NCBI GenBank assembly: GCA_016180645.1
Contig: JACPAV010000021.1
Coordinates: 1-64,000, forward strand
DNA length: 64,000 bases
Source: Nitrospirota bacterium
GTDB lineage: Bacteria > JACPQY01
Reading direction: 5' to 3'
Of the stretch, positions 5,324-27,970 are shown one piece after another. The position numbers were made by a program, and so were the translations under genes. The first letter of the stretch is position 1, and each line of letters opens with the position of its first letter. Under the pieces are notes generated by a model, which saw only the letters and a program-made list of their open reading frames with translations, searched no databases and was not told the DNA's origin.

Positions 5324-7672
5324 TCAGTCCAGGGCCGTGAGTTCCGAGGGAGGAGGCGGGGGAGCCTTCGGGCCGTGCTTCTTGCGCGCGAAAGGGTTTC
5401 GAAATCTCTTCGGCTTCCTTGCGTCGGCCTCCGGCGTGTAGCCCCGGTATTGGTAGCGATACAAGTAGCGCGGGTAGAAATAGGGGCCGTGGTAGTCGAT
5501 GTCGTTCAGGACGAGCCCGAGGACGTTGGCGCCCGCCCCCTTCATCGATTCCACCGCGCGGAGCAGCATCTCCCGCGGCGTCCGACCGATGCGGTACACC
5601 AGGACCAACCCGTCCACGTGCGGCGCGATGACGGAGGCATCGGCCACCGGAAGGATCGGCGGGCAATCGACGATCACGATCTCGAATTCTTTTTTCAGCG
5701 TCTCGATCAAACCTCCTCGCATCAACTGTTCGAGCGTTTCGGAGGGGTGGACGGGCGTGGGGCCGGCGGGGAGGATGCGGAGTTTATCCAATCCCGGCGT
5801 GGTCTGAAGCGTTTTCGGGTCCAGCCCTTCGAGGAAGAAATCGTAGACGGTGCGGACAAGGGATTTCCACGGCGCGCCGTCGAGCACGATGTTGGTCAAC
5901 CCGCGCTCCGGTTTCATGGGAAAAATTTTGTGCATGGTCGGACGGCGGGTGTTCGCCTCCACGAGGAGCGTCGGGTACCCGGCCTGTGCGAAGGTAATGG
6001 CGAGATTCGAGGTGATGAAGGACTTTCCTTCCTGGGGCGTGGCGCTCGTCAGGAGGAACGCCCGATGTTTGACCGCCCCGCGGCGCATGCCCATCCGAAG
6101 GATCCTGAAGCTCTCGCCGACCGGATCCTTGGGCCAGAAATGGGCCACCATCTTGTCCTGATAATAAGGACGCGGGTTCGCGCCCTCCTCCTTCCGCTTC
6201 CTTCCCACGCGCCGGGCCTCGGCGCCCTCCGGATCGAAATGCGGAATGACCGACAGGACCGGGTGCCCGACCAAGGCCTCCACTTCCGCGACGTTGTCGA
6301 GGGAGAAATCGAACGACTCGCGCAGAAAGGCCAGTCCGATTCCCAGGATGAATCCGAAGGCGAGGAACGACAGCATGGGGGTGAGTTGCAGCCGCTTCGA
6401 GGCCGCGGCCGGCACGAGAGCGAGCTCGACGACGCGCACAAGGTCGCTCGTGTAACTTTGCTCGTACTGCGCGGTCTGCCAGGCCTTCTCCATTTCGTCC
6501 AGCATGCTTTGCCGTCGTTCCACGTTCCGCTCCAGCCGCACGAGCTGGATCTGATCTTCCAGGACCGTCAGTTTGGATGCTTCGAGCCGGCCGCGCGCGT
6601 CGGCGATTTCCCCTTCCTCGCGCCCCACGTCATCCAGCGTTCGCCGGAGCACGAGGACCAATTGTTCCTGGTCCTGGCGAAGTCGATCCCCGAGGCTGTG
6701 CACCTGGGGGTGAGCGGTGGTGAATGAGCTTTCGAGTTCTCTTTTCTCGGAAAGCGTCCGCACGAAATCGGCGCGATGCTGTTCGTAGTCCTCCGGCGCG
6801 CCGGCAAAAACGAGGGTGGGCACCGTTCCCCCGCGGGCGTAGTCCTCTTGAAGCAAGGTGTCGAGGATCCTGGCGACGGCCTTTCTCCTTTCGACCAGGG
6901 CCTCCTCCCGTTCTTCCAGATCGATCAGACGCCTGAGTTGGAGGTTCAGCGAGGCTTCCGCTTCCATCATGCGGTGCGACATCTTGAAATCGGCGAGCTC
7001 CCTTTCGGCTTGATCGAGTTGGCCATCCAGCCGCTTGCGCTGATCGGCCGACGAGGAGTGGGCTTGGTCGGCTCTCTCCCTCGTCCGCCTGTTCCGGTGG
7101 TCCCTGTAGGCTTCGGCGGTGAAATTGGCGATATCGCGGGCCTCCTTCGCATCGGCGGCCGTCACCTCGATATCCATGATCATCGTCCCCGGCCGCTCGA
7201 TCACGCGGATCTTGGACTGAATCTCCTTCACGGCGCGAAGGTGCTCCTGGTGGGCGGAGATCGACTCCTCCGTGGAATCGGGTGGAATCCGCCCGAGGCG
7301 TCGGGCCACCTCCATGACGACGGGCACACTGGTGACGATGTAGCCTTCCGTCTTCGTGTCGGTCCAGGAATACCCCCGTCCTCCGGGAGCCATGGTGAAG
7401 AATTGGTCGAGTTCCACGCTGGACCGGGTGCGGAAAACGGGTTCCTGGCTTCGGATGAAGGCGAGAGACACGATGAAGGAGACGGTTACGGTGAGGATGA
7501 CGATGTGTTTCCGCTTCAGAATGATCTTCAGGACATCCGGAAGGGAGGCGTGGTGTTCGTGTGGGCGGGGCGTCGGCGGGACGGGGGGGGCGGGGGGATT
7601 CACGGGCGGCGCGTAGAGGGATCGCTCAGGCCATGCGGTGTGAGGGTCCTTCGTGGCCGGCGACCGAGGCAT
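5324..7672 (-). CDS. Wzc/GumC-like polysaccharide co-polymerase with BY-kinase domain (copy 1)
   Basis: N-terminal TM, coiled-coil periplasmic region, second TM, ESFRILR, Walker A SATPQEGKS, Walker B IVIVDCPP, C-terminal Tyr cluster YHGPYFYPRYLYRYQYRGY. Confidence 0.9.
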   Translation of the reverse strand: MPRSPATKDPHTAWPERSLYAPPVNPPAPPVPPTPRPHEHHASLPDVLKIILKRKHIVILTVTVSFIVSLAFIRSQEPVFRTRSSVELDQFFTMAPGGRGYSWTDTKTEGYIVTSVPVVMEVARRLGRIPPDSTEESISAHQEHLRAVKEIQSKIRVIERPGTMIMDIEVTAADAKEARDIANFTAEAYRDHRNRRTRERADQAHSSSADQRKRLDGQLDQAERELADFKMSHRMMEAEASLNLQLRRLIDLEEREEALVERRKAVARILDTLLQEDYARGGTVPTLVFAGAPEDYEQHRADFVRTLSEKRELESSFTTAHPQVHSLGDRLRQDQEQLVLVLRRTLDDVGREEGEIADARGRLEASKLTVLEDQIQLVRLERNVERRQSMLDEMEKAWQTAQYEQSYTSDLVRVVELALVPAAASKRLQLTPMLSFLAFGFILGIGLAFLRESFDFSLDNVAEVEALVGHPVLSVIPHFDPEGAEARRVGRKRKEEGANPRPYYQDKMVAHFWPKDPVGESFRILRMGMRRGAVKHRAFLLTSATPQEGKSFITSNLAITFAQAGYPTLLVEANTRRPTMHKIFPMKPERGLTNIVLDGAPWKSLVRTVYDFFLEGLDPKTLQTTPGLDKLRILPAGPTPVHPSETLEQLMRGGLIETLKKEFEIVIVDCPPILPVADASVIAPHVDGLVLVYRIGRTPREMLLRAVESMKGAGANVLGLVLNDIDYHGPYFYPRYLYRYQYRGYTPEADARKPKRFRNPFARKKHGPKAPPPPPSELTALD

Positions 7673-8564
7673 CCTTAATGGTGATCATCGGATGGAGTCG
7701 AAGGTCGAGGATCTCGCCGGTGGGTCCATCGGGACCGTCCTCCAAGAGTTCCACCACGGGGTTCATTGGCGTATCGGGATTCGGCGACCGAACACGCGCC
7801 ATACGCCCCGTGGAAAGCCGCACGAGCGAGCCCGGAGGGTAGGGAGTGACCGTGCGAAGCGCGGCCATCAAGACGCGTTTTGGGAAATGCTCGCGCGAGT
7901 CCTTGACGAGGAGCGAAAACCCGTCGAGAAAAGACTTCGGCTTGCGATAGGGCCGGTAGTGCGTGAGGCTTTCGATCGTGTCGCAGAAGCCGACGATTTT
8001 CGCAAAATATTCGATTTCGTCGCCGTGCAGCCCGTGCGGATAGCCGGTCCCGTTCTGGCGCTCCTGTTCGTGAAGCGCGATGCGCGAGAAGACGGCCCTC
8101 AGACCCGACTCGCTGAGAATGCGGAAACCGATCTCGGGATGTGTTTCCACGATTTTGCGCTCCCGTTCGGTCAGGGGCCGCTGCATGTGGACGATTTCCC
8201 TGGGGAGGTCGAACATTCCCACGTCATGCAACAGCCCGCCCGCTCCGAGGATGAGAAGGTCTTGCCCGCCGATCTCCAGTTCGTGGCCCATGGCCATCGC
8301 CAGGATGCTGACATTGATGGAATGGTCATAGAGAAAATCGGATTCATAGTCCCGAGACGAAGGCGCGAAGATCTGGGCCAGCCACAAGAGTTCATGGCTC
8401 CGCAGGCTGGAGAGCACTTCCGCAAGAGTCAGGAAGATTCGATGATCCCTGACGTCAGTTCCATTCCGGACGTGATCGACAAAATGGTGGAGGTCATCAC
8501 GGAGCGTGGAGGTCAACCGATCGACCTCTGGCTCCCCCTCCCTCAGCCCATTTCCGTTATGCAT
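7626..8564 (-). CDS. HD-GYP domain protein, degenerate metal ligands (copy 1)
   Basis: HSINV, LLHDVG, HPEIG, GTGYPHGLHGDEI, RPYRK motifs; canonical HHE reads EQE. Overlaps the start of the Wzc-like gene by 47 bp. Confidence 0.88.
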   Translation of the reverse strand: MHNGNGLREGEPEVDRLTSTLRDDLHHFVDHVRNGTDVRDHRIFLTLAEVLSSLRSHELLWLAQIFAPSSRDYESDFLYDHSINVSILAMAMGHELEIGGQDLLILGAGGLLHDVGMFDLPREIVHMQRPLTERERKIVETHPEIGFRILSESGLRAVFSRIALHEQERQNGTGYPHGLHGDEIEYFAKIVGFCDTIESLTHYRPYRKPKSFLDGFSLLVKDSREHFPKRVLMAALRTVTPYPPGSLVRLSTGRMARVRSPNPDTPMNPVVELLEDGPDGPTGEILDLRLHPMITIKDASVAGHEGPSHRMA

Positions 8565-8607
8565 GGCCTCTGATAAACAATGGCCGGATTTTGTTCTCCC
8601 TTGTTTT

Positions 8608-8641
8608 TTGACATGTTAGCAGAGTACCTGTAGAATGTCAA
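8608..8641. promoter_or_regulatory. overlapping divergent sigma70-type promoters
   Basis: Plus strand: TTGACA(8608-13)-17 bp-TAGAAT(8631-36). Minus strand: TTGACA(8641-36)-17 bp-TAACAT(8618-13). Lies between divergent genes. Confidence 0.6.
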
Positions 8642-8642
8642 C

Positions 8643-9920
8643 ATGTTGCACATGTGCGCGGACGGATACGGCATCGGCGGGAGGATCAAGATAGATCACG
8701 TGTGCTTTCTAATGGTTGGAGTGCTTGCGTTCGCATGTGGAGAAAACAATAGTCCGATCGAATTGCAATCGGCTTCGGACCGCTCGTGTCGCGCGATCCA
8801 GCCTCTGGAGAGCGGAGCGCCGCGTGGGCCTCTGGCCGGGGGTTTCCAAGCGATCGACCGGCAGTCGGGCAGCGAGTGGAACGTTTTTGGAGAGGCTGTC
8901 GCCGGTTCGATGGCGGAGGGCGGGCGCCGGCTGGAAACGATCGGTGAGGCTTTCACGGCCTACTGGTTTGCATGGAGCGCCATCTGGCCTGGAGCCGAAG
9001 TGTGGGGTCGTGAGGCGCGACCCAACGCCGCCGTCAAGATGCCGGAAACGTTGGCCGACGGTTCGTTGAAGCCCTCGTGCAGCGCGGGGCGCGACTGTAT
9101 TCCGGCTCTAAGGCCGACGTGGGTCGGCGCGGGCAATCCAGCCGCCTTTGCCTATCTGACGGATGAGGACGAAGTCGTTGGGATTCGTCTCGGCGGGAGC
9201 GCGCGCGCCTACCCCCACAAAATTTTGTGGCGGCATGAGGCGATCAACGACGTGCTGGCGGGCGCGCCGATGGCCGTCACCCACAGCGCGCTCACGCGTT
9301 CGACCGTCGTTTTCGACACCTACAGAGAGGGCGAGTCTCCCTTGGATCTGGGAGTGACGGGCAGTCTCTACAACTCCAACACCGTTTTCTATGACCGGGA
9401 GACGGACAGCTTCTGGAGCCAGATGCGGATGCAGATCATTCGGGGACCCCTCGCGCAGTCGCGATGGGGCGAGGCGAAAACCTGTCCGTTCGTGGAGACG
9501 ACATGGAAAACCTGGCGGACCCTTTTCCCTGAAACCGAAGTCATCTCCGAGAAAACGGGATTTGACATCGACTACCGGAAGTATCCCTACACAACGCCCC
9601 GGGCGGGAGAGGAATCCGACGTGGACTACAGGACCGACGATGCGGATACGTTCCGCCCCACCGTTCCGCCCGTGGACCATTTGGCGGACCCCGGCCAGGC
9701 CGGGTACGTGGGGTCGAAGGACCTTGCGTTCGGAGTCATCCAAAAAGATGCGGCCAAGTTCTATCTCTGGAAGGACCTGAGCGCGCTCGGCGAGCGCGCC
9801 GCCGTTAACGACACGGTGGGCGGCGTTCCGATCGTCGTTTTCTGGGACGCTGGAAACAGGTGGATCTCCGCCTATCATCGCGATGTGGAGGATCGAACGC
9901 TGGAGTTCGAGAGCCGATAG
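8643..9920 (+). CDS. DUF3179-family lipoprotein, apparently circularly permuted
   Basis: Lipobox LAFAC; family-type motifs DCIPAL, ARAYPHKILWRHEAIND, GSLYNSNTVFYDRETDSFWSQ, TTWKTWRTLFPET, YWFAWSAIWP. Confidence 0.8.
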   Translation: MLHMCADGYGIGGRIKIDHVCFLMVGVLAFACGENNSPIELQSASDRSCRAIQPLESGAPRGPLAGGFQAIDRQSGSEWNVFGEAVAGSMAEGGRRLETIGEAFTAYWFAWSAIWPGAEVWGREARPNAAVKMPETLADGSLKPSCSAGRDCIPALRPTWVGAGNPAAFAYLTDEDEVVGIRLGGSARAYPHKILWRHEAINDVLAGAPMAVTHSALTRSTVVFDTYREGESPLDLGVTGSLYNSNTVFYDRETDSFWSQMRMQIIRGPLAQSRWGEAKTCPFVETTWKTWRTLFPETEVISEKTGFDIDYRKYPYTTPRAGEESDVDYRTDDADTFRPTVPPVDHLADPGQAGYVGSKDLAFGVIQKDAAKFYLWKDLSALGERAAVNDTVGGVPIVVFWDAGNRWISAYHRDVEDRTLEFESR

Positions 9921-9926
9921 GTCCGT

Positions 9927-9974
9927 TTCGAGGCCGAACCCCATGCCGAGGACGGTATGGGGTTCGGCCTCGAA
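9927..9974. terminator. 22-bp stem hairpin between convergent genes
   Basis: TTCGAGGCCGAACCCCATGCCG-AGGA-CGGTATGGGGTTCGGCCTCGAA (one G:T pair), just after the DUF3179 stop; no clear U-tract. Confidence 0.5.
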
Positions 9975-10116
9975 GAGCGTCTAACAGAATGCGTAGGGGA
10001 GGGTCTTCAGACCCTCCCGACAAGAGGGAGCAAGTAGGGGAGGGTCTTCAGACCCTCCCGGCAAGAGGGAGCATCTGAAGATGCTCCCCTACGAATCGGC
10101 ATTCTGTTAGACGCTC
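9975..10116. mobile_element. MITE carrying GTAG-type REP palindromes (copy 1)
   Basis: Perfect 18-bp terminal inverted repeat GAGCGTCTAACAGAATGC/GCATTCTGTTAGACGCTC, flanked by GAA on both sides; interior has GTAG-GGGAGGGTCTTCAGACCCTCCC twice and GGGAGCATCTGAAGATGCTCCC-CTAC. Confidence 0.8.
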
Positions 10117-10135
10117 GAAGACCATCTCGTGTGGA

Positions 10136-10300
10136 TCAGGAGTCTCTGTTCGACGCGGCGCACGCCCCTTGTCCGGGCCTCTTGCCGCACGACACGAGCG
10201 CGGACTCTTCGAAAATCTTCTCGGACTCGATCCGGGGCGGCTCGTACTTCGCCTTGGCGCCATCTTTCTCCTGTTCGGGTTTTCCCGGTTTGCCGTCCAC
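10136..10300 (-). CDS. 54-aa RiPP-precursor-like peptide
   Basis: GTG start overlaps the TAG stop of the upstream giant gene (TAGTG). MDGKPGKPEQEKDGAKAKYEPPRIESEKIFEESALVSCGKRPGQGACAASNRDS: YxxPxI leader-like motif followed by a short two-Cys small-residue core. Confidence 0.7.
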   Translation of the reverse strand: MDGKPGKPEQEKDGAKAKYEPPRIESEKIFEESALVSCGKRPGQGACAASNRDS

Positions 10301-13300
10301 TATGGCGTGGGATCCACAATCCACATCGGGAGGTACCACACGTTGCCGCCCACGCCGCCGAGAACGAGGTAGGTGTAGTTGAGGTCCGGCACGAGGCTGC
10401 CGGCCAGACTGACGCCGAGGTTGAACGGGTAGCCGTTCGATGTGAGCTGGACGGGGCTCTTGAGCGTGCAGCAGTTGGTGGTGATGTCGTAGGCGAAGAC
10501 CTTGCCCACCGTGTTCGAAAAGTAGAGGACGCCCTTGTACACGACCGGTTGGGACCGGATGGGGTTCGTTCCATCGGGCTGGACGGGGAAGCCCGTGCAG
10601 GCGGCCCCGGTCGATTCGACGACGCAGTGGAGCTTGCCCGTGTCGTCCCCGAAGAAGATCCCGCCGTGCGCGAGCCACGGTTGGAGCGCCTTGGAAGGTC
10701 CCACGCCCCCGCCGCCGGTGTACCCGCCGGTGAAGTTGGTGTAATCGGTGAAGTCGCTCTTGTTGAATACGCGGAGCGCCCCCGCCGATCCGGACGCCGT
10801 CGGGACGTAAAACCGGCCCTGGGTGATGTGCATCCAGGGCAAGCCGTAGACCGCGTAGCCGCCGCCGATGTTCTTGGTCAATGTGGCCGGTGCGGTGTCC
10901 GGCGTGAGGAGGCCGTCCGCCGCGGTAGTGGCCTGGAATTCGGTGACGCCCCTCGCGCCCGTGCCTGCCACGTACACGCGCAGGTTGGTGGCGCTCGCGT
11001 TGTACTGCATGGCCGTGCTGTCCTCCGTAGGCGGATTGGCGTCGACATCGACGCACTTGTAGATGTACGGGGCCGTCGAGCCGGTGCAGTTTGTCGTGTT
11101 GCAGTAGGTGTTGGAGGCGTTGTTGTTCCAGCAGACCGAGCAGACGTAATCAACGGCCGCCCCGGTCTGCGCGCCGAAATAGATCATTTCGTTGTCGCCC
11201 TGCACACCTGTGGTGATTTTGTTGAAAGTGACGGCCGATCCCTTGCAGGCCGTGCCGCCTCCGGTGTATCCACCCGTGTAGCCTGTTTCGATGCCGATGG
11301 CCGAGCCGGTAAACGTGGCGCCGACCATTTTCCCCGTGGTCGTGCCGAACCAGATCCATTCCTTTTCCGTTCCGGCGCAGGTATTGGCGCCCCAGTTCTG
11401 CGTGTAGGCCCACACGGTGCCCACGCCGTCCCCGCAGGCGCCCCCACACAGCGTGTCCACGGCGGCGGAGGCGCGCAGGTCGGTTCCCGCCGAGTTGACG
11501 ACGTAGATTGAATCTCCGCTTCCGGCCGCCCCTTCGCGCGAGAGGACGAACGTGCCCAGGAACGTATCGCCCGCCGTGCCCGCGAGGTCTGAGTCGTAGT
11601 CCGACTGCGCCTGTGTACACTGTGTCCATATGTTGGCGCCGAACGCTTGGAGGGTGCCGCGGATGACGGACAGACTTCGGACTCCCGCGTCGAAGGTCCC
11701 CGAGATTCCCGGGGGGGAACCGAGGGCGACATTGGAGTTCCCGCTGTCGCAGATCGACGAGCCGCAACCGGCGTTCTGGATGGTGATCGTATCGCCGGCG
11801 GCCACCGTGGCGCCCGAACCGGGCGTGATGGTCAGCTTCTGATTGGTATCCCAGGAGCAACTGGGCCCGGACCCCCAACCGTGTGAACTGCTGAGCAGGA
11901 GATACGTCAGAACGCCCGGGCACGTCGCCTGGTTTGTCGCGGAAGAGAATTCGAGGATGACGCGATCGCCGGCGGAAAGGCCGGCCGTCGGCGTCCCCGC
12001 CGTGTCCGTGGCGGTAGCCAGGATCAAATCGGGCGCCGAGCCGTTCGTGGTGAAGTCGGTGTCGTTGGGATCCGTATTGGCCCCGTAGGCGGTCCATGCG
12101 ACGGATGATGAACCGAGGCTGTCCATGGTCCGCGCCTGCCAGTGGTAGGAGCCGTTCGACAGGCTCAGGGATACCGTTTGGCTCGACCCGCTCGCCACAT
12201 ACGTCGTGGCGGAAACGGTGGGCACGCCGGTGAAGGCGATGCCGACCGCCTTGACTTCAACTTGCAGCTTGACTGTGTCGGAATCGGGGTCGGTCATCGT
12301 GGCCGTGAACTTGACCGTATTGGAAGTGATGGAACCGCCTTGGGCGATGGGCGTGTCGTTTCCGTCGGCTTGAGATGGGGAAGTCGGTGCGTTGGGCGCG
12401 GTGGTGGTCGGCGTGGCGCAGCGTTCCACGGTGTTGGTATCCTGGTTCCCCATGGCGTCGCGGGCCCGCGCGACGAAACAGTACTGTGTGCCCGCCGTCA
12501 GGCCGGTATCGGTGTAGCTGGTGCCGGTGAACCCGCCGGGGGGCACCGCGTTCGACGGCCCGGGCGTGAAGCCGGTGGATCCCCTGTAGATGTTGTACGT
12601 CACCGGTTCGGAGGCATCGCTCCCGGCGGCCCAGGAGACCGTTACGCAGCCGCTGCCGCAGGTGGTGACTGCCGAGGTGGCGCCCGCGAACGTCGGCGGC
12701 GTCGTGTCGGTGGAAACGCCTCCGATATCGAATTCATCGATGTTCCATCCGGACAGCGCCACCGCGTTGTCCGTCGTCAAGTTGAACCGGATTTGGAGGG
12801 ACGTCTGTCCGTCCCAGGCGTTGGCCGGGCTCGGCGCCACCTCGTGCAGGAACCACGCGGCGTCCCGCACGCTTCCGCTCCCCGCTGTCGCGCCGGCGGT
12901 CCACACGTCGGTGAAGCTGCATCCCCCTCCCGCGCACGCTTGAATGCGCGCGATGTCGTAGCCGTTGCCCTCGTGGTTCAGCCACCGCCGGTAACGGATT
13001 TTGATGTTGGAGCGATTGGCGCAGTTGAAGGCGACGGAGGTGAGGTTGATCGTCTGATTGTTCGGATAGTCGCCCGACAGGTTGTTTCCCCACACCTTCC
13101 CGTTCCCGCTCGTGGCCCCGTATCCGCTCGGAGGGTCCGGGTTGCCCGCCGCGCTTCCACCCGAGCCGGTGGGCGTGCCCCAGGCCACATTCGCGCTGCT
13201 GGGCGTCCAGCCGCCGTTGTTCGACTCGAAATCGTGCGGAGGTTGGTTGGTGGGGCTGTAGCAAGAGATGAAATTGGCGCTGGGCGCGGCCGACTTCTCC

Positions 13301-15135: not shown

Positions 15136-15515
15136 GGTCGTCCGGACCTCGGCGGGATCTTGACTGCGGAGCCGGGCACCTCATGCGCCTTTTCGAGAAC
15201 CCCTCGATCAAAAAGGCCGAGCTTGTCCTGCTGTTCCTTGGTCACTGCCGGAGCGTCCACACCGGCAAGATCCTCGGGAACGACGTCCGGCGCGGGGCCC
15301 TCCCCGGGGAGATCCACCTCAGTCCCAAACCTGCCGTCGGCTTCACCCGGAAGTCGCTCGTATCGCCCGCCCCGTTGATATACGCCGGCGCCTCCGTGGC
15401 CAACCGCGCTCTTGTCGCGCTTGGAACAACCTTGAAGAGTTGAAACTGCGGACAAAATGAGTAGAAGGGATAGACCCCACGCGAGTGATAACTGCCGTGA
15501 CCGGCTTTTTGGCAT
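15132..15515 (-). CDS. small lipoprotein, unknown function
   Basis: Basic N-terminus, hydrophobic core, lipobox LQGC; stop overlaps the ATG of the giant protein (ATGA). Confidence 0.7.
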   Translation of the reverse strand: MPKSRSRQLSLAWGLSLLLILSAVSTLQGCSKRDKSAVGHGGAGVYQRGGRYERLPGEADGRFGTEVDLPGEGPAPDVVPEDLAGVDAPAVTKEQQDKLGLFDRGVLEKAHEVPGSAVKIPPRSGRP

Positions 15516-15728
15516 GCTCCCGTCCCTGATTCACGTGTACAAGAATTCATGTGGTTTGTCAATATCAAATTGGCGGCAATAGTGACTCTTATTGATGGCT
15601 TTTGAATTTAGACGTCACGGGTCACCTTGGCCGTCCGTCAGGGTCGTGAACGTCGAACATCTGAATCATGAACGTGGAACGGCGAACGTCGCACGTGGGA
15701 GGAGGAATTCCGGCGTTCACGTCGGCGT

Positions 15729-15885
15729 AGTGCGGTCGAGCGTGATGCGAGCCGGTATTCGAGGTAGGCGCACCCTTCAGGGTGCGTCATTAGACGCGGG
15801 CTAAAGCCCGCGGCTACCACTACTGCTGTACGCCGACCATGGAGGGTTGGCATGACGAAGGAAGTGCGGTCGAGCGTGATGCGAG
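15729..15885. repeat. REP doublet bracketed by a 23-bp direct repeat
   Basis: AGTGCGGTCGAGCGTGATGCGAG at 15729-15751 and 15863-15885; between them GTAGGCGCACCCTTCAGGGTGCG...CGCGGGCTAAAGCCCGCGGCTAC (15764-15817). Confidence 0.7.
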
Positions 15886-16014
15886 TGCGATCCGGCGTGA
15901 TGCCGGCCGCACTTTCGACGCCGAGATCCCACGTTGAGTCCCTTCGTCGTCCCCGAAGCGGAGCGGAGGGGGCAACCTATTTGGCCGGCAGGAAGCCGGC
16001 GATAGGGTAGAAAG

Positions 16015-16087
16015 TGCGCCTGGAGGGAGTCGAACCCCCAACCCTCAGATCCGAAGTCTGATGCTCTATCCATTGAGCTACAGGCGC
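16015..16087 (-). tRNA. tRNA-Arg (anticodon UCG), CCA not encoded
   Basis: GCGCCTGTAGCTCAATGGATAGAGCATCAGACTTCGGATCTGAGGGTTGGGGGTTCGACTCCCTCCAGGCGCA folds as a cloverleaf; anticodon arm TCAGA-CTTCGGA-TCTGA; T-loop GTTCGAC. Confidence 0.95.
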
Positions 16088-16106
16088 AACTAGTGATTTC
16101 AGAGGC

Positions 16107-16574
16107 TTACGAAGCCAGGGCTTCCTGAGCTTTGGCAACTCCAAAATTACTCCAAATTTTCGACCCGGAATAGGCGTCCAGGCGCTTGATCGCCTCCGCC
16201 TTGTGTTCGTCGGCCACGTGCGCGTAGATCTCTACCATCTCCAAGCTACTCCATCCTCCAAGTTCCATCAAGGTCTTGAGCAGGTACACGTCCTGCACGT
16301 ATGCCTTTAAGTGAATCCGCGAGTAGTTCAGCCAATCATCGGCCAGCATGTTGAACGTGGTCACCGCTTCCGGGGCCACCCTTTCCCACGGCCTTGCACC
16401 CGTCTGGACCTTCGCCCTCAACCCGTCCAACATCCCGATGGCATTCTCAAGCGTTTCCGCCTCATGCCTCTCAAGAATCCGCTCATGGTATTTCCGCGCC
16501 AGCTCCGGGTAGCGAACGAGAAAACGCCCATCCGGTAGCTGCCTCACGCCCTTGTATCGTTTGATTTTCGGCAT
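16107..16574 (-). pseudogene. tyrosine integrase with in-frame internal deletion
   Basis: N-terminal arm-binding-like region and TTFNMLADDWL joined directly to the C-terminal TLMELGGWSSLEMVEIYAHVADEHKAEAI (catalytic Tyr segment). Box I Arg and HxxR are missing; only 155 aa. Confidence 0.8.
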
Positions 16575-16575
16575 C

Positions 16576-16773
16576 TCACTTGCCCCCTTTCTTTGCCCTT
16601 ATCCTCTGCCTGCACATGGGGCAGACTTGTTGCCCAATCTCCTTCTTCAAGAGTTCGATCACCATCCGGTTGAACGCGATCCCACGGCGGGCGCAGTAAG
16701 CCTCAACCTCGGCCTTGAAATCAAGCGGCAGCCGAACGGCCCTGACCGTCGATGTCTTGTGCCTATCCTTCAT
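16576..16773 (-). CDS. ribbon-helix-helix (Arc/CopG-like) regulator
   Basis: VRAVRLPLDFKAEVEAYCARRGIAFNRMVIELLKKEI fits the RHH strand-helix-helix pattern; C-terminal CPMC; directly upstream of the integrase. Confidence 0.65.
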   Translation of the reverse strand: MKDRHKTSTVRAVRLPLDFKAEVEAYCARRGIAFNRMVIELLKKEIGQQVCPMCRQRIRAKKGGK

Positions 16774-16811
16774 GGTAATACCAATGTATTACCACATGGC
16801 TGTTTTGTCAA
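16773..16811 (-). promoter_or_regulatory. sigma70-type promoter with overlapping palindromic operator
   Basis: TTGACA(16811-06)-17 bp-TACATT(16788-83); inverted repeat TGGTAATAC-CAAT-GTATTACCA (16773-16794) covers the -10 box. Confidence 0.65.
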
Positions 16812-16840
16812 GCCCCCTTGATGCTACTGACTGCGGAGCC

Positions 16841-17575
16841 TCACGGTGCCGACCACGTGCGCTTGCCATTTGTGTCTGAAAACTCCAGCCAGGGGCCAGA
16901 TGGTGGCAAGAGCAGCTCCACGCGAGGGGTACCTTTGTCGTCAACGAGTGTCAGCTTTGACCCTTCCTTGAGTGTGCCCAGCGCCGCGCGGGGGGTGCCT
17001 TTCCCATCGTTCAAGCTCAGCACCGGCCCGTCATCATTCAATTCCAACTTGGCGCGATGGGTACCCTTCCCGTCCCAGAGGGCAAGCGCCGGCCCAGTCT
17101 CTGTGACGTTCAGGCCGCCGCGGTGAGTGCCCTTCTCGTCGGACAGGACGAGCCCCGATCCCTTATCGGCCTCAATTCTGAGGACAACTCGATTGGTACC
17201 CTTCTCGTCAAACAGGCCCAGTCCTAGTCCTTTCTCGTCCACTCTCAACGCAGCACGGTTGGCTCCTTTCTCATCGAACAGCAACAGGGACGACCCTGCT
17301 TAAGACCCGATCAACTGTGCGCGAGGGGTGCCCTTCTCGTCCCAGAAGGCCAGCACCGGCCCCGCCTCCGTGACGCCCAGGGCGCCGAGATCGTGCCCCC
17401 ATTTGTCCTCCAACACGAATTTACTTGCCCGAATGACCTTCCCGGCTTTCTCAGACGGCCAAGCCAGCGCGCAACCCACGATGACCGGGAACAGTGCAAA
17501 CCACAGCCAGCGGTTGCGCCGCTTCGTAAGGTCCAGCTCATGCTCCAGTTTGCTCAGGCGTTCTTCAATGGTCAT
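16841..17575 (-). pseudogene. membrane-anchored ~22-aa repeat protein split by one in-frame TAA
   Basis: ORFs 17300-17575 and 16841-17284 are in the same frame, separated only by TAA at 17302-17300; the repeat LxLxDEKGTxRxxLxVxxxG continues across the stop. Confidence 0.75.
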
Positions 17576-17729
17576 CTCGACCCCCTTTCGGTGTTAGGAT
17601 TCTTTCTCAATTTGCATCCATCCTAGTCCGCGTCTATCCCAGTGTCCAAGGAAGCCGGAGGCGGGGTAGGTGGTCCTTGCGATAGCTCATGCGTTGCCGG
17701 TCCTCGCAGGGCATGGTAGAGAAGCGGCC

Positions 17730-17933
17730 ATGACAAAAGGCACCGTCCGGCGAATTGAGAAAATCGTAGAGATTGCAACACAACTAGGCATGGCCGCCGT
17801 CATCGGTGGAACGGCGGATGCCGTGGTGGACGGTACGCGCAAGGGGCTGGACCTGTTCGGGATCATCATGGGTGCCCTATCTCTCGCCGTTGCAGTCTGG
17901 TTGACGGGACGGGTGAACGGAGATAAGCTATGA
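17730..17933 (+). CDS. small two-TM membrane protein
   Basis: MTKGTVRRIEKIVEIATQLGMAAVIGG...LFGIIMGALSLAVAVWLTGR; stop overlaps the next ATG (ATGA). Confidence 0.55.
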   Translation: MTKGTVRRIEKIVEIATQLGMAAVIGGTADAVVDGTRKGLDLFGIIMGALSLAVAVWLTGRVNGDKL

Positions 17934-18052
17934 ACATGGATGCAGCCAGTACGGTTCTTTTTGTCGCCTTCGCGGGGGTAGGCTTGTTCGCCATGGGTGC
18001 CGCCCTCTACGGCTTTCTAGCCACCCGTTCCAAGACCCCCGCCCATAATTAG
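17930..18052 (+). CDS. 40-aa single-TM peptide
   Basis: Manual translation MNMDAASTVLFVAFAGVGLFAMGAALYGFLATRSKTPAHN; coupled to the preceding ORF. Confidence 0.5.
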   Translation: MNMDAASTVLFVAFAGVGLFAMGAALYGFLATRSKTPAHN

Positions 18053-18139
18053 CTTTTCCCCTCCGGCCATCCTCCCCCCTTCACTGCATCTCCGGCGATA
18101 GAAAAACGCTTTTTTCAACATCGGGACCCTTGCGGTAGC

Positions 18140-18848
18140 TCACTGTCTCGGTCCGATCACCCGCCGGACAAGTTCAGGGACCGCCAGGGGATGACAGTTA
18201 GCGCACACAGTAACCCCGTGGATGCTCACCCAGAAGGTAGACCCCCCGCAACCCCAACACGGACGAGAAGAATCCTCCTTTCCGCCAAGGGGTAGCGGAA
18301 TTTGGGGACTTGGCGGAAGCATCTACCATGACGGAAAGGGCTGATTTGAGCCGGTCCAAGTAGGCAAGGGAACGGTCACAAGGCTTCCCTTCCCGGCGCG
18401 AGCGCCCAGAATGATGGAGAACGAGTCCTGCCGCACCCGTTCGCCGGAGGACGTTTTCCCACGCGACAGAAATTGCCGTTCCTTCCGCGTTGTCGTTTTC
18501 CCTCGCCATCCTCCAAGTCTTATTAAGCGTGTCCAGGACGACGAGAACGACACCTTCACCGTGGATGATACTCGTCAGTTCGGTGGCATCGCGCATAAGA
18601 TCGAGTTCGGAAAGAAAAAAAAGATTGTCCGGCCAGCCGCCCATGTTGTCCAGTTTCTCTTTCAAGTTCCAGGTTGGATTTTCCGTAGCGACGAACAATA
18701 CCGGGCCGGATTTCGACGGGGTGATTCCCACAAGATCACCGCCCCCAGCGATTGCACGCGCCACCGCAAGTGCGAACGTAGTCTTGCCCTCGCCCGTGGG
18801 CGCATTGAGAATTGTCGAGAGGGTAGGGAAAAGGTACTCGCCCCACAA
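18140..18848 (-). pseudogene. RepA/AAA_25-type helicase fragment plus out-of-frame Zn-finger tail
   Basis: Walker A APTGEGKT, VLFVATE, Walker B VVLDTL, LVLHHSGR; no good N-terminus; a different frame carries CWGCGGSTFW...CANCHP. Confidence 0.65.
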
Positions 18849-19082
18849 CCCCGTGATGCGCTGTTCACTCTCCGCGTGAAAGCAATCGCGCCACGGGCAA
18901 GCAGTCGCGGTTTCCGCATGGCGCGAAGATCCAGAGCGGAAATTCTCACTCCAAATTTACTCCAAATTTCGTACCCTAATTCCATGTAACGGCTTGTCAT
19001 CGGTTTTCACGTCGATTGGAAATCGGACGATCTTTCAAGGGTGAATGACAGTCAGTGAGGATAGATGACGGTAGCCTTTGAA

Positions 19083-19123
19083 ATCCGAAGTCTGATGCTC
19101 TATCCATTGAGCTACAGGCGCAA
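19083..19123 (-). repeat. att site: 5' half of tRNA-Arg
   Basis: Identical to 16049-16089, running from just before the tRNA 5' end through the anticodon loop, then diverging. Confidence 0.9.
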
Positions 19124-19214
19124 GGACGCGCAGTCCCTGCCGTACGCCGAGCCACGAAGGTGAGGCCCGGCCAATCGGCAGGGGCAGGCGTACTATCTTC
19201 ATCGTCGCGGGCAT

Positions 19215-19285
19215 CCCCATCGCCACGAGGGCATGGGGCCATGATATGTCGCCGTGCCACGGATGGCACGGCATTGAACATGGCC
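19215..19285 (-). repeat. double-hairpin dispersed repeat (partner at 37211-37281)
   Basis: GGCCATGTTCAATGCCGTGCCATCCGTGGCACGGCGACATATCATGGCCCCATGCCCTCGTGGCGATGGGG aligns with 37211-37281. Confidence 0.7.
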
Positions 19286-19473
19286 TGCCCGCCGTCAAAG
19301 GATGATAGTGCGGCCGACCTCACGTCGGGCCACGTTGAATGGGGTCGATTGTACAGAAAATCAAACCGGCCACCAGTTGAAGGATCAGGACTTCGACTGC
19401 CGACAACGGAAGCAGTTCGGCTCAATCGAACCCCGCCTTGGGCGTGATCGCCCGTGGGGTTTGGCTCTCTTCG

Positions 19474-21759
19474 TTACTCGAGAAAGTTGAGGGGTGGTAC
19501 GCCGCCTGTGGTCTGGGGCGGGGTTGGCGAGGGAGGTGCAGCGCGACGCCACGGCCACTTCCGTCCTCGGAGCGTCGGCCGCGGGCGGGCATCGGCCTCG
19601 GGGGTGTAGCCCTTGCGCTGATAGCGGTAAAGATAGCGAGGATAGAGATAGGGGCCTTGGTAGTCGATGTCGTTCAAGACCATCCCGATCAGATTCGCTC
19701 CTACGCCTTTCATCGTATCGACGGCGCGAAGGAGCATGTCCCTGGGCGTACGCCCGACCCGGTAGACCAGGACGACGCCGTCCACGTGGGGCCCGATCAC
19801 GGCGGCGTCCGCCACCGGAAGGATGGGAGGGCAGTCGATGATGACCACCTCGAAATCTTTCTTCACCTCCTCCAGGAAATGCCGGTTCATGAGCTGCTCG
19901 ATCGTCTCGGAGGGATGAACCGGTGCTGGACCGGCCGGAAGAATTTTCAAGTTCTCCAATCCTGGAAACCTTTGAACCGACTTGGGATCCAGCCCGTCGA
20001 GGATCAAGTCGTAGATCGAACGGACCACCTCTTTGTAACCGACGCCGTCGGTGGTGATGCTGGTCAGGCCTCGATCGAGCCGGAGCGGGAAAATCTTGTG
20101 CAGGGTGGGACGCCGGGTATTCGCTTCGATGAGCAGCGTGGAATAGTTCGATTGGGCAAACGCAATCGCGAGATTGGAGGTGACAAACGACTTGCCTTCC
20201 TGCGGCGTGGCGCTCGTGACCAGGAACACCTGGCGGTCGCTCCGCCCCCTTCGCATCCCCATCCGCAGGATTCGGAAAGCCTCGCTGGTAGGGTGCTTGG
20301 GGTAGTAGTGGGCCACCATGGCGGTGTCGGGCGGGATCTTGGAACCCGCTGGATCGGACGACGGGGAGGAGCGGCCGTTCCCGCTTTCGCGGAGATCGAA
20401 ATGGGGGATGACGGAAAAGACCGGAAGTTTCACCAAGGCCTCGATTTCGGAAACGTTCTCCAGAGAAAAATCGAAAGCTTCCCGGAGGAACGCCAGTCCC
20501 AATCCCACGATGAGGCCCATGAGCAGGATGGGAATAACCGGGGCCAGGCCGAACTGGGATTTGTCCGGATGCGCGGGCAGGAGCGCGTATTCGATGACCC
20601 GGACGAAGTCATCCCGATTTCGCGATTCGAATTCGGCGGTTTGCCACGCCTTCTGCATCTCATCCAGCATCTCCTGGTCGTGCTCGACTTTCCGCTGGAG
20701 CCGTACGAGCTGGATCTCATCCTCCAGGTAGCTTGTTTTGGCCGCTTCAATCCGGTTCTTTTGCATGGCGATGTCGTTTTCCCGGCGGAGGATTTGCAAT
20801 TCGAGTTGTTCGATCGTTCGTATGAGATCCAATCGCAGGCTCTTGAGCCGGGAATCCAATTCCAGGATGACAGGATGTTGCGGGGTCAGTTCGGACGTCT
20901 TCTCCTGTTTTTCCGAAAGAACGCGGATGAAATTCTGCCGGAGCTGCTCATAGTTGGGCGGCGCGTTGGGGATGTCGAGCGAAGGCAGGCTGGGCTGGCG
21001 CTCCAGGTACGGTGCCTGTAGCGCCTGCAGGGTTTCCCCCAAAGCCGATTTCTGATTCTCGAGGTCCTCCTGTATCTCCTCAAGTTCGATCAGCTTGGAA
21101 AGGTGGAGCTTCAACGAGGATTCGACCTCCAGGAGTCGGTGCGAGATCTTGAACTCCCCGAGCGCGCGCTCGTCCGCTTCCAACGCGGCTTCCAGCCGCA
21201 TCCTCTGCTTTCGGGCCGCTTCCTGGGCGGTGGCGGACTGCTCCCGGCTGTTGAGCCCTCGGTACCATTTGTAGGCCTCGGCCGTGAGGTTGGCGATGTC
21301 GCGCGACTCCTTCGCATTCGACGACGTGACCTCGATATCGACGATGGAGGTTCTCTGTCGTTGCCGAGGGCGGATCATCCCCTGGATGGATTTGACGATG
21401 GGAAAGTACTGGTCGTTCTGGAGGATCTCCTCGTGCTTGAGGTCCGCCGGAATGCGGCCGAGCTTCCGGGCCACTTGGATGACCACCGGGAGGCTGTTGA
21501 CCACATGCACTTCCGTGCTCAGGTCCGTCCACGCGAAGCTTGTGCCCCCAGGGGCGGCGTAGGAGACCTGCTGAATTTCGACACTCGCCTGGGTGCGGTA
21601 AGACGTCCCCCGGGTCCGCGTGAACACGACCGACAGCACGATGGAGACGGACAAACATAGGAGGATGATCCACTTTCTCTTGAGGATGACCCGCGAGATG
21701 TCGAGGATCGAAGGCTTCGGCCCGGCAGATCCTTGGGCCGACGGACGGCTCTCGGGCAT
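19474..21759 (-). CDS. Wzc/GumC-like co-polymerase with BY-kinase domain (copy 2)
   Basis: Same architecture as 5324-7672; SATPQEGKS, VVIIDCPP, YQGPYLYPRYLYRYQRKGY. Confidence 0.9.
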   Translation of the reverse strand: MPESRPSAQGSAGPKPSILDISRVILKRKWIILLCLSVSIVLSVVFTRTRGTSYRTQASVEIQQVSYAAPGGTSFAWTDLSTEVHVVNSLPVVIQVARKLGRIPADLKHEEILQNDQYFPIVKSIQGMIRPRQRQRTSIVDIEVTSSNAKESRDIANLTAEAYKWYRGLNSREQSATAQEAARKQRMRLEAALEADERALGEFKISHRLLEVESSLKLHLSKLIELEEIQEDLENQKSALGETLQALQAPYLERQPSLPSLDIPNAPPNYEQLRQNFIRVLSEKQEKTSELTPQHPVILELDSRLKSLRLDLIRTIEQLELQILRRENDIAMQKNRIEAAKTSYLEDEIQLVRLQRKVEHDQEMLDEMQKAWQTAEFESRNRDDFVRVIEYALLPAHPDKSQFGLAPVIPILLMGLIVGLGLAFLREAFDFSLENVSEIEALVKLPVFSVIPHFDLRESGNGRSSPSSDPAGSKIPPDTAMVAHYYPKHPTSEAFRILRMGMRRGRSDRQVFLVTSATPQEGKSFVTSNLAIAFAQSNYSTLLIEANTRRPTLHKIFPLRLDRGLTSITTDGVGYKEVVRSIYDLILDGLDPKSVQRFPGLENLKILPAGPAPVHPSETIEQLMNRHFLEEVKKDFEVVIIDCPPILPVADAAVIGPHVDGVVLVYRVGRTPRDMLLRAVDTMKGVGANLIGMVLNDIDYQGPYLYPRYLYRYQRKGYTPEADARPRPTLRGRKWPWRRAAPPSPTPPQTTGGVPPLNFLE

Positions 21760-22680
21760 TTAGGCGAGCGCCTCTCCGATGGTGATCATGGGATATCGGC
21801 GAAGGTCCAGGAGCTGTTCGGTGCCCGCTCCGTTCTCATGCTCAAGGATCTCCACCACGGGTTTCATGGGAGTCTCGGGATTGGGCTTGTGCACCCGCGC
21901 CAGTTTTCCGCTGGAGAGCTTCACCAGGGAACCGGGTGGATAGGGGGTGATGCGCCGGAGGGCGGCCAGCCAAAGATGGCGCGGGAATTGATCCCGAGAC
22001 TGTCCGAGGAGAAGTGAAAATCCGTCGAAGAATGATTGAGGCGCGCGGTGGGGCCGGAAGTGGGTGACACTCTCGACCGAATCGCAAAAGCCCACGATCT
22101 TGGCCAGGTGCTCAATCTCCTCTCCCCTCAAGCGATGCGGGTAGCCGCTCCCGTCCTCGCGTTCCTGTTCCTGAAGCGACAGCCTGGAGAAAGCTTTCTT
22201 GAGCCGGGAGTCTTGGAGGAGCCGGGCGCCTCGCTCCGGATGTGTCTGAACCACCTTGCGCTCCTCCTCGGTGAACTTCCTTCCCACCTTGAGGAGATCC
22301 TCCGGAAGATCGAACATGCCGACGTCGTGCAGGAGTCCGCCAGCGCCGAGGATGAGAAGATCCTTGCCCTCCACGGACATCTCCCGGCCCAAGGAGAGGC
22401 TCAGAATGGCCACGTTGATGGAGTGGTCATAAAGGAAGTGGGATCGATACTCGCCTTCGTTGGGATGGAAGACGGATTTCAGCCATCCGTCGGGATGAAG
22501 GGCAAGGTCGGAAGCCATTTCGGTCAGGATGGAGAACAAACGGTGCTCCTCGGTGTCCCGCCCGTTTCGCAGGCGATCGACAAAACGCATCAATTCCTCG
22601 CGCGCGGTGCGCACCAGCGAATCAATGCGTTCCCGTTCGCGGGCGGCCACCCTTGATTCATCACGACCCGTGCTGCTCAT
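21760..22680 (-). CDS. HD-GYP domain protein, degenerate (copy 2)
   Basis: HSINV, LLHDVG, QEQEREDGSGYP, RPHR; the stop codon abuts the ATG of Wzc copy 2. Confidence 0.88.
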   Translation of the reverse strand: MSSTGRDESRVAARERERIDSLVRTAREELMRFVDRLRNGRDTEEHRLFSILTEMASDLALHPDGWLKSVFHPNEGEYRSHFLYDHSINVAILSLSLGREMSVEGKDLLILGAGGLLHDVGMFDLPEDLLKVGRKFTEEERKVVQTHPERGARLLQDSRLKKAFSRLSLQEQEREDGSGYPHRLRGEEIEHLAKIVGFCDSVESVTHFRPHRAPQSFFDGFSLLLGQSRDQFPRHLWLAALRRITPYPPGSLVKLSSGKLARVHKPNPETPMKPVVEILEHENGAGTEQLLDLRRYPMITIGEALA

Positions 22681-22822
22681 GGCCCTCCTGTAGGTAAATC
22701 ACATGCTAGCACAGTGGACCGGACAAGGAAAGTGGGGATCCTCTCCCGCCGAAGGACGGAGGAGGAGAACCCTGTCGGGTGGGCCTCGGCCGGCTCGTCG
22801 AGCGGTACGGGGGCGAATGCGC

Positions 22823-22851: not shown

Positions 22852-22876
22852 AAAGACCTGTGAATCAAAGGCAACA

Positions 22877-27945: not shown

Positions 27946-27970
27946 GGCAATGGGATCAAGGTTTCAACCT

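Follow-up and report, generated by a model that had tools for sequence, protein, structure and literature searches.

An HD-GYP variant paired with a Wzc-like co-polymerase in Nitrospirota: a candidate c-di-GMP-sensing module located away from polysaccharide genes

Introduction

What does a soluble protein of the HD-GYP type do beside a Wzc-like inner-membrane protein when no polysaccharide gene is recognisable around either of them? The question is raised by a 64-kb stretch of DNA from a Nitrospirota bacterium (the first 64 kb of contig JACPAV010000021.1, our contig C23; hereafter, the window), in which two such gene pairs are found. A first-pass annotation of the window had described the pairs as a module responsive to cyclic di-GMP (c-di-GMP), acting in trans on an exopolysaccharide (EPS) machine or repurposed for the display of surface proteins. 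The present analysis suggested that the two genes probably form a functional, physically interacting unit. Post-translational control of Wzx/Wzy-dependent polysaccharides by c-di-GMP is poorly understood, and the pair, predicted to bind, would offer a direct, testable link between the two.

The source genome (G000) comprises 4.7 Mb in 65 contigs and is 97% complete; base 1 of the window is base 1 of contig C23. It was compared with G001, the only other species-level genome of the phylum in the set searched, which is 84% complete.

Results

Two intact copies of the cassette in the window

The open reading frames (ORFs) of the two pairs lie exactly where the first-pass annotation had placed two intact, diverged copies, at 5324–8564 and 19474–22680 (Table 1). 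Its description of the genes as overlapping or abutting was also borne out: the genes of pair 1 overlap by 47 nt when the longest ORF is taken, and those of pair 2 are separated by no gap, the start codon of Wzc B abutting the stop codon of HD-GYP B. The start codon of Wzc A is uncertain, because its first ~42 residues are not conserved. A comparison of the two copies gave 384 identical residues of 714 (54%) for the Wzc-like proteins and 164 of 286 (57%) for the HD-GYP-like proteins. The Nei–Gojobori dN/dS ratios, a comparison that the first-pass annotation had suggested, were ~0.29 and ~0.21, respectively, and are to be read only as well below 1, dS being near saturation (1.45 and 1.77). With ratios of ~0.2–0.3, both copies of the cassette are intact and under purifying selection.

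A scan for sigma-70-like consensus sequences returned 2 sites in 9 kb against 1.2 expected, and the match upstream of HD-GYP A is given in Table 1. No terminator-like site was found between HD-GYP A, Wzc A and the downstream RCC1 gene in a minus-strand scan that used consensus matching only.

Conservation of the pairing in two genomes

A whole-genome protein search located six cassettes in G000, all with the same gene order and strand: two on C23 and one each on C25, C58, C47, and C11. Five cassettes and one unpaired Wzc-family member were found in G001, where two of the cassettes lie 191 nt apart. In what follows, the paralogous pairs of G000 are named p and those of G001 q (p3–p6, q1–q5); the HD-GYP coordinates of p3 and p4 were taken from the whole-genome protein search together with a listing of start codons. 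Within the cassettes the spacing between the two genes ranges from a 47-nt overlap to a 101-nt gap. An HD-GYP variant stands directly upstream, on the same strand, of 6 of the 7 Wzc-family genes in G000 and 5 of the 6 in G001 (11 of 13 in total), and, counted from the other side, 11 of the 12 HD-GYP-subfamily genes of the two genomes are paired with a Wzc-like gene. The term "duplicated cassette" used earlier was correct as to the two copies in the window but understated the case, as there are six cassettes in the genome and five more in G001. The survey of gene neighbourhoods proposed at that time thus found the pairing conserved, and the claim of a two-gene module gained by this count of 11 in 13.

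To follow the history of the pairs, maximum-likelihood trees were built of the HD-GYP and the Wzc-like families. Both trees contain the supported groups {p4,q5}, {q1,q2}, and {q3,q4} as well as a core clade of 11 members. Since these groups are shared, the cassette appears to have duplicated and diverged as a unit. The pairing survives divergence to ~30% identity in the 11 pairs, while all other neighbours have changed.

The larger ORFs of the whole window were scanned against Pfam, and no member of the Poly_export, Wzx, Wzy, Bac_transf, LMWPc, or glycosyltransferase families was found among them, which agrees with the earlier statement that no polysaccharide gene is recognisable nearby. Likewise, no recognisable polysaccharide gene was present among the scanned neighbours of the 11 pairs (6 in G000, 5 in G001). 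The first-pass annotation had allowed that such pairs might ordinarily lie inside complete EPS clusters; none of the 11 does. Of the three findings that it had named as refuting its proposal, none was made to the extent that the data bear on them; the window begins at base 1 of its contig, with no sequence to the left. Except for the HD-GYP or Wzc partner itself, the neighbours of the paired loci differ between G000 and G001. The polysaccharide genes of G000, all away from the cassettes, include three genes for outer membrane polysaccharide export (OPX) proteins (two on C6 and one on C31), two Bac_transf matches, and six Wzx-like matches. As these genes are scattered elsewhere in the genome, action of the pairs in trans on an EPS machine, which the first-pass annotation had put forward, is plausible.

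Two family members of G000 stand outside the cassettes. Wzc7, on C18, has no HD-GYP neighbour and is situated among genes for a family 4 glycosyltransferase (GT4), a weakly GT9-like ORF, Wzy_C, and a methyltransferase. A 368-aa ORF upstream of Wzc7 was considered as a decayed HD-GYP gene and was rejected, as it gave no alignment and showed a weak Glyco_transf_9 match instead. In both genomes Wzc7 divergently adjoins genes for a TPR Ser/Thr protein kinase, an AI-2E transporter, and MacB-type permeases, and this synteny is kept (L013:8536-14064 on C18 of G000; L023:5931-10149 of G001). HD8, on C31, is the seventh HD-GYP-subfamily member and lies directly upstream of a gene for an 838-aa OPX protein with FG-GAP, OmpA, Poly_export, and SLBB domains. 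It is a matter of speculation that the unpaired Wzc7 and HD8 might be partners in trans.

Distribution beyond the two genomes

Among 5.8 billion clustered proteins, the HD-GYP subfamily was represented by seven clusters besides the query at at least 45% identity, and the search scores then fell sharply from E values of 8e-66 to 5e-40, to generic HD-GYP proteins. The Wzc-like clade had nine members, including the query, at at least 52% identity over the cytoplasmic half, followed by a drop from 2e-102 to 1e-61. Two further pairs of subfamily HD-GYP and Wzc matches came from equal-sized contigs (6092 bp and 18363 bp); this co-occurrence, which is all that the match shows, suggests that they are further cassettes. 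A contig scan with the Wzc-family alignment and a single peptide pattern yielded two loci, L017 and L018. A tblastn search with Wzc A and a classic Wzc detected no Wzc-like gene by the best 80 metagenome loci obtained with the HD-GYP alignment (526,723 bases, with up to 5 kb of flank on each side); these loci were all at most 38% identical and none belonged to the subfamily. Fused forms were not seen either, none of 22 longer matches carrying GNVR, Wzz, or AAA_31, which is weak evidence. A search of full-text literature did not find HD-GYP together with a BY-kinase (bacterial tyrosine kinase), and the publications retrieved for HD-GYP and Wzc together, judged by titles and the beginnings of abstracts, concerned no such pairing. 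An HD-GYP protein partnered with a polysaccharide co-polymerase of class 2a (PCP-2a) and expanded into co-diverging pairs was accordingly not met in the literature searched. The best reading is that the module is lineage-specific.

The Wzc-like proteins keep the fold and most motifs of BY-kinases

Both Wzc-like proteins of the window matched the BY-kinase domain model TIGR01007 of NCBIfam, with 134.1 bits for Wzc A and 127.8 bits for Wzc B against a cut-off of 108.05, and fell far below the cut-offs of the full-length equivalogs (~105–114 bits against 1068 for Wzc and 1248 for Etk). The Pfam family GNVR was matched just above its cut-off, and a weak Wzz match was found in B. Hydrophobic segments were located at residues ~50–76 and 428–454 of Wzc A and ~24–50 and 400–429 of Wzc B. 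Between those of Wzc A lies a periplasmic region of ~350 aa with GNVR, and a cytoplasmic P-loop domain follows them, which is the topology of a PCP-2a protein; E. coli Wzc and S. aureus CapAB have the same two transmembrane segments around a periplasmic GNVR/Wzz-type region. The cytoplasmic domain aligned with CapB, Wzc, BceF, Etk, and VpsO in the PDB, with E values of 5e-28 to 4e-15.

Conservation over 45 sequences was then compared with the known motifs. The Walker A sequence reads ATPQEGKS in both window copies, with G549 and K550 invariant. The ring-contact helix ExxRxxR is present as E520-S-F-R523-I-L-R526, in which E520 is invariant in both alignments and R523 is nearly invariant in the 45 sequences; the corresponding ring contacts of CapB are E23, R26, and R29 (PMC2422856, available part). 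Walker B is kept as VIVDCPP (hhhhDxxP), with D669 and P672 invariant. The tail of Wzc A carries a C-terminal tyrosine cluster, YHGPYFYPRYLYRYQYRGY, and that of Wzc B is similar; the cluster is kept by six of the seven paralogues and was lost in p4. In Walker A GKS, ExxRxxR, Walker B DxxP, and the Tyr-rich tail, the proteins are therefore like E. coli Wzc and S. aureus CapAB.

The Walker A' motif is where they differ: ExNxR is found in place of DxDxR in all seven G000 family paralogues. The two Wzc-like proteins of contig C6, outside the family, read DxN and NxN, so that the position of the catalytic Asp is Asn in all nine Wzc-like proteins of G000. In CapB, D79 of D77-x-D79-x-R is "positioned to deprotonate" the substrate tyrosine (PMC2422856, available part), and a study of 796 BY-kinases, whose search rule included DxDxR, reports 100% conservation of this motif (PMC4007543, available part). 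At a fixed offset from the P-loop, the 120 homologues listed showed DxD in 81, ExD in 13, ExN in 11 (9 of them from this clade), SxD in 5, and GxD in 1, together with DxN in 4, GxN in 3, SxN in 1, and CxN in 1. Asn thus occupies the catalytic-Asp position in 20 of the 120 homologues listed, most of which keep Tyr-rich tails, and by this count it represents a recurrent minority state in environmental Wzc-like proteins.

Because the catalytic DxD is replaced by ExN, the label "kinase" must be considered unproven for these proteins. The first-pass term "Wzc-like kinase" holds as far as the domain match above the TIGR01007 cut-off goes and does not hold for the catalytic motif. The proposal that the module leads from c-di-GMP to tyrosine phosphorylation is weakened in the same way, the proposed deprotonating Asp of CapB being Asn in every paralogue. 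The Asn-bearing proteins further call into question the annotation "tyrosine autokinase" that proteins of this type receive.

The HD-GYP variants form a conserved class

HD-GYP A and B matched the Pfam families HD_5/HD with E values of 2e-22 and 2e-19. No hydrophobic or transmembrane segment was found in HD-GYP A, which reads as a cytoplasmic protein. Its layout consists of N-terminal helices (~1–75), the HD-GYP core (77–227), further helices, and a C-terminal beta domain of five strands (~243–300). An AlphaFold2 model was obtained with a mean predicted local distance difference test (pLDDT) of 88.4 and a predicted template modelling (pTM) score of 0.88, in which the C-terminal five-strand domain lies outside the coverage of solved HD-GYP structures. 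The best Foldseek matches of the model were DvhD (top, E value 7e-9), Bd1817 (TM score 0.60), PmGH, and PA4781, with E values from 7e-9 to 1e-7.

Residue conservation was judged over 20 sequences of the subfamily. The motif LLHDVGM is present, and H81, H113, D114, H142, and D195 are invariant or nearly so, with the exception of HD8, which has AD. The GYP motif is kept as GTGYP or GSGYP, Y175 being nearly invariant, and reads GSP in p6. The guanine-binding pair RxY[K/R] reads RPYR in A and RPHR in B, and R204 and R207 are invariant; this pair and the GYP tyrosine are described as the main determinants of c-di-GMP recognition (10.1101/2021.11.05.467447, available part). Two features are absent in the core clade. 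One is the KPG motif, which aligns with MQR in A and with VGR in B; the other is the third-metal Glu, which is E185 in PmGH, the position four before H81 being occupied by Phe. According to the available part of the same source, binuclear HD-GYP proteins lacking the third-metal Glu can be active (10.1101/2021.11.05.467447).

A further change concerns the double-His site. Where PmGH (PDB 4mcw) has H-H-E, both window copies and p3 have E-Q-E, as the first-pass annotation had read for the window. Elsewhere the position reads EHE in p4, q1, q2, and q5, HHE in p5, SQE in p6, IHE in HD8, and AQE in a single other sequence, and the first residue is Glu in 15 of the 20 sequences. The double His is described as providing metal ligands, and in HnoD and ECA3548 its loss went with a loss of activity, these being inactive HD-GYP proteins that act through protein contacts (10.1101/2021.11.05.467447, available part). 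The same loss was reported for DvhD, a c-di-GMP receptor with a non-catalytic HD-GYP domain (PMC13090378, available part). In the proteins studied here HD is retained and Glu consistently takes the place of His, a milder change that may leave residual or altered catalysis. The word "degenerate" used in the first-pass annotation was too strong, since the proteins retain HD together with RxxR, the GYP Tyr, the Asp, and two other His, and the first His is replaced by Glu in a consistent manner. Judged from these alignments, the variants with Glu for the first His of HHE constitute a conserved class rather than a product of random decay.

A predicted complex of the two proteins

Modelling of the HD-GYP protein with the kinase domain, one of the checks proposed at the outset, was carried out for one cognate pair, with residues 452–760 of Wzc A (45-row alignment) and HD-GYP A (20-row alignment). 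The interface score ipSAE (interaction prediction score from aligned errors) was 0.69 (median of 3 runs), compared with 0.17 for the best control. Of 157 solved complexes, 116 attain the mark applied to this score, as do 2 of 215 mismatched pairs; these counts are rough, since our own alignments were used here. The runs agreed in at least 81% of the contacts, and the pLDDT of the partner was at least 80. PDB sequence and fold searches listed no entry with both folds, and a score derived from a memorised structure therefore seems unlikely. The prediction supports, rather than shows, binding of HD-GYP A to Wzc A.

In the predicted interface, residues 213–241, 264–268, and 292–299 of the HD-GYP protein, that is, its subfamily-specific C-terminal part, contact residues 564–565 and 608–630 of the Wzc-like protein. 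CapB and the C6 proteins lack the 608–630 loop. At residue 610 on the Wzc side, for example, one main clade has Tyr where the other has Glu, Asp, Ala, or Lys, and at residue 619 the clades carry Pro and Leu, respectively, or the reverse; in parallel, residues 217, 267, and 299 on the HD-GYP side differ between the main clades. Such clade-specific residues at the modelled interface would fit insulated pairs.

Discussion

Proposed mechanism

The following chain would account for these observations. The soluble HD-GYP-fold protein would be a sensor of c-di-GMP or a close dinucleotide, with weak or no phosphodiesterase activity. Twenty-four GGDEF matches were found in G000, one of them in the window, and c-di-GMP is therefore available in the organism. 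In the predicted docking, the C-terminal helices and beta domain of the sensor contact the loop 608–630 of the P-loop domain of its partner, an inner-membrane PCP-2a protein that has kept its ATP-binding and ring-forming residues and its Tyr-rich tail. Binding of the nucleotide could then change the assembly or cycling of the Wzc-like ring, and this in turn might set how a Wzx/Wzy-type polymer, specified by genes at other loci, is polymerised and exported, in either direction of control. The six or seven paralogous pairs might serve as separate channels. We hold the chain as a whole, a lineage-specific c-di-GMP sensor on a co-polymerase ring that acts in trans on polymer export, to be evenly balanced between right and wrong. 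The narrower formulation, in which the Wzc-like proteins would be ATP-binding pseudo-BY-kinase rings, each gated by a private HD-GYP-fold c-di-GMP receptor, is advanced from the motifs as a tentative and rather doubtful proposal. If true, it would provide the first example of post-translational action by a second messenger on a Wzx/Wzy-type co-polymerase, and with insulated receptor–ring pairs a single cell could regulate several polymers, or mixed rings, independently of one another. Six to seven co-diverging pairs in one genome would in any case offer a natural set for studying the insulation of paralogous signalling pairs.

Several points weigh against this chain. The connection to polysaccharide runs through family membership only, and genes of the OPX, Wzx, Wzy, or glycosyltransferase families stand next to none of the pairs. 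The metal site retains HD, two further His, and the Asp, and a change from His to Glu is metal-competent, so the HD-GYP variant could be an active enzyme. Co-divergence is expected of any adjacent genes that are duplicated together, and the clade-specific interface residues are confounded by shared ancestry. The 608–630 loop also occurs in many related Wzc-like proteins that are not known to be paired with HD-GYP proteins, and the loop alone therefore does not explain the pairing. With the queries used, no counterpart of HD8 was found beside the counterpart of its OPX neighbour on contig C79 of G001, a genome that is 84% complete. Finally, the evidence comes from two metagenome-assembled genomes and a few contigs, from groundwater.

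Alternative explanations

One alternative makes the HD-GYP variant an active phosphodiesterase tethered to the Wzc-like protein, either as a local c-di-GMP sink or as a hydrolase of pGpG or cGAMP. We consider it unlikely, although H81, H142, and D195 are retained together with HD, the GYP Tyr, and RxxR, and Glu can ligate metal; p5 even has the full HHE, and p4, q1, q2, and q5 keep the second His. The precedent for activity in binuclear HD-GYP proteins without the third-metal Glu (10.1101/2021.11.05.467447, available part) also speaks for it, as does the position of the active site in the docking model, outside the listed interface residues. Against these stand the precedents of DvhD, HnoD, and ECA3548, in which, according to the available parts of the sources cited above, loss of the double His went with inactivity. 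The core clade has moreover lost KPG, and GSP in p6 and AD in HD8 argue that catalysis is not under uniform constraint. A hydrolytic role of another kind is conceivable, since HD domains are phosphohydrolases of many kinds (10.1101/2021.11.05.467447, available part): the HD-fold protein might be a metal-dependent phosphotyrosine phosphatase that replaces Wzb/CpsB and resets the Tyr-rich tail, one for each kinase. The one-to-one pairing and co-duplication would fit an enzyme and its substrate, and a gene for a low-molecular-weight protein tyrosine phosphatase lies beside none of the nine Wzc-like genes, the two LMWPc matches of the genome both being elsewhere. BY-kinases usually have a partner phosphatase. 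No HD-family phosphotyrosine phosphatase is known to us, although no search aimed at one was made. What makes this role distinctly improbable is that the kept features, the GYP Tyr and RxY[K/R], are dinucleotide-specific and not generic HD ones, that the Tyr-rich tail (~726–745) makes no confident contact in the model, that a partner without the catalytic Asp perhaps offers little phosphotyrosine to remove, and that p4 has lost its Tyr cluster yet keeps its HD-GYP partner.

The pairs might, on the other hand, have left polysaccharide export altogether, the Wzc-like ring serving another envelope process such as the handling of giant secreted repeat proteins. No pair lies in an EPS locus, seven family members compare with three OPX genes, and the DxD motif is non-canonical; in addition, Wzc A is followed after 69 nt by a gene for an RCC1 protein, and p4 by genes for MopE and RCC1 proteins. 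The first-pass suggestion of surface-protein display was likewise drawn from giant neighbours. It does not stand up well to the genome-wide count: because ~36 RCC1-type genes are scattered over the genome, such adjacency is close to chance, with about one of six cassettes expected near one and two of six seen (an estimate, P ~0.27). The neighbours differ from G000 to G001, the nearest unpaired member, Wzc7, lies among GT4, GT9-like, Wzy_C, and methyltransferase genes, and the periplasmic GNVR/Wzz features are kept, all of which leaves a role outside polysaccharide export slightly less probable still than the phosphatase. The last alternative is adjacency without function, in which the genes merely hitch-hike as neighbours in a sparsely sampled lineage. 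The arrangement is known from only two genomes and a few contigs, and duplication of a segment copies neighbours whether they interact or not. Set against this are the persistence of the arrangement to ~30% identity in 11 pairs amid changed surroundings, overlapping or abutting frames that suggest co-translation, and a complex model that passed its controls, and we regard simple hitch-hiking as very improbable.

Comparison with known systems

BcsA-PilZ, Alg44-PilZ, and PelD are c-di-GMP receptors in synthase-dependent secretion machines and use PilZ or degenerate GGDEF domains. The logic proposed for the HD-GYP and Wzc-like pair would be similar, in that a receptor contacts an inner-membrane part of the machine and gates its output after translation; unlike in those systems, an HD-GYP fold would serve here as the receptor, with a Wzx/Wzy-type co-polymerase as the part of the machine. 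Compared with E. coli Wzc and S. aureus CapAB, the Wzc-like genes have no OPX, Wzx, Wzy, glycosyltransferase, or phosphatase gene as neighbour, and none of the six G000 or five G001 pairs shows that customary location. A further difference is the number of copies, with seven family members in G000, six of them with a private HD-GYP partner. By its motifs the pair would fall outside the BY-kinases defined by DxDxR and the catalytic HD-GYP proteins defined by HHE, while the fold and the remaining motifs agree with both.

DvhD of Desulfovibrio vulgaris (PDB 9rbz, 9rc0), the top Foldseek match, shares the HD-GYP fold and a changed double-His site. It is a receptor and not an enzyme, a role that is only proposed for the protein described here, and it is a membrane protein of dCache-PAS-HD-GYP architecture that controls a protease–adhesin (Lap-like) system and has also lost HD (SQ) (PMC13090378, available part). 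The present protein, by comparison, is soluble and single-domain, retains HD, and has a PCP as its partner. RpfG, HnoD, and ECA3548 offer a second parallel as HD-GYP proteins with weak or no activity that regulate partners by binding, again a mode of action that is proposed here; they differ in carrying REC or PilZ domains and in binding GGDEF, EAL, or PilZ partners (10.1101/2021.11.05.467447, available part). In the literature searched, none of them was reported alongside a PCP or BY-kinase.

Surroundings of the cassettes

The features of the window, together with the HD8 locus, are collected in Table 1.

Table 1. Coordinates of the cassette genes and of other features in the window, and of the HD8 locus
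Feature	Position	Strand	Remarks
HD-GYP variant A	7626–8564	(-)	312 aa ORF
Wzc-like PCP-2a protein A	5324–7672	(-)	782 aa ORF
HD-GYP variant B	21760–22680	(-)	306 aa ORF; architecture as in A
Wzc-like PCP-2a protein B	19474–21759	(-)	761 aa ORF; ExNxR and Tyr-rich tail as in A
Sigma-70-like promoter match	8613–8641	(-)	TTGACA-17-TAACAT with TG; 49 nt upstream of the HD-GYP A start; consensus match only
RCC1-repeat protein	698–5254	(-)	1518 aa; 69 nt downstream of Wzc A
cNMP-binding ORF	1–555	(-)	cut by the contig end
Intervening DNA, 10.9 kb, outside the module	8643–19425	.	DUF3179 gene, 1611-aa PPC/fn3 protein, small ORFs
Integrase C-terminal fragment	16107–16574		between the cassettes
AAA_25 ORF	18198–18848		between the cassettes
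HD8 and OPX protein	G000:C31:100490-104415 (L014:8490-12415)		only link of the HD-GYP subfamily to an export protein

The neighbours named in the first-pass annotation were recovered, namely the giant RCC1 (1518 aa) and PPC/fn3 (1611 aa) proteins and the cyclic nucleotide monophosphate (cNMP)-binding ORF. G000 as a whole shows a large expansion of giant RCC1-repeat (WD40_RLD) proteins, with 115 domain matches in ~36 genes encoding ~450–2800 aa. These genes are spread over many contigs of the 4.7-Mb genome, several of them at contig ends.

Between the two cassettes, the segment 15800–19425 shows a dip in GC content to 0.58 and contains the integrase fragment, the AAA_25 ORF, and several small ORFs without a family match; it has the appearance of a mobile-element remnant. 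As two cassettes of G001 lie only 191 nt apart, and in view of the integrase fragment and the lower GC here, it is a reasonable inference that the 10.9-kb stretch may be an insertion between cassettes that once stood in tandem. One-to-one orthology between the cassettes of the window and those of G001 was left unsettled by the trees.

Among the other cassettes, one in G000 (L009:5040-8746 on C25) and one in G001 (L021:48-4306) are each flanked by two asparagine-synthase-like genes, an instance of conserved synteny; on C25 they are followed by a radical-SAM/SPASM gene and an ABC transporter. Genes of the asparagine-synthase type are found in peptide as well as polysaccharide loci. Two ordinary OPX/Wzc-like pairs lie back to back on C6 of G000 (L015:7315-11371, L016:1112-4735), each with a Poly_export/SLBB gene, and one of the C6 Wzc-like proteins has CarboxypepD_reg inserts in its periplasmic part.

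Downstream in the window, an AsnC/Lrp-type regulator gene, divergent from the second cassette, is followed by the genes for the large and small subunits of glutamate synthase (22703–29462, plus strand). The regulator ORF as listed (236 aa) starts ~70 codons before the helix-turn-helix, and its true start is probably later. Fatty-acid and glycoside-hydrolase genes occur farther along the window, and a GGDEF-GAF protein is encoded at 60243–61541 on the minus strand, 38 kb from the second cassette.

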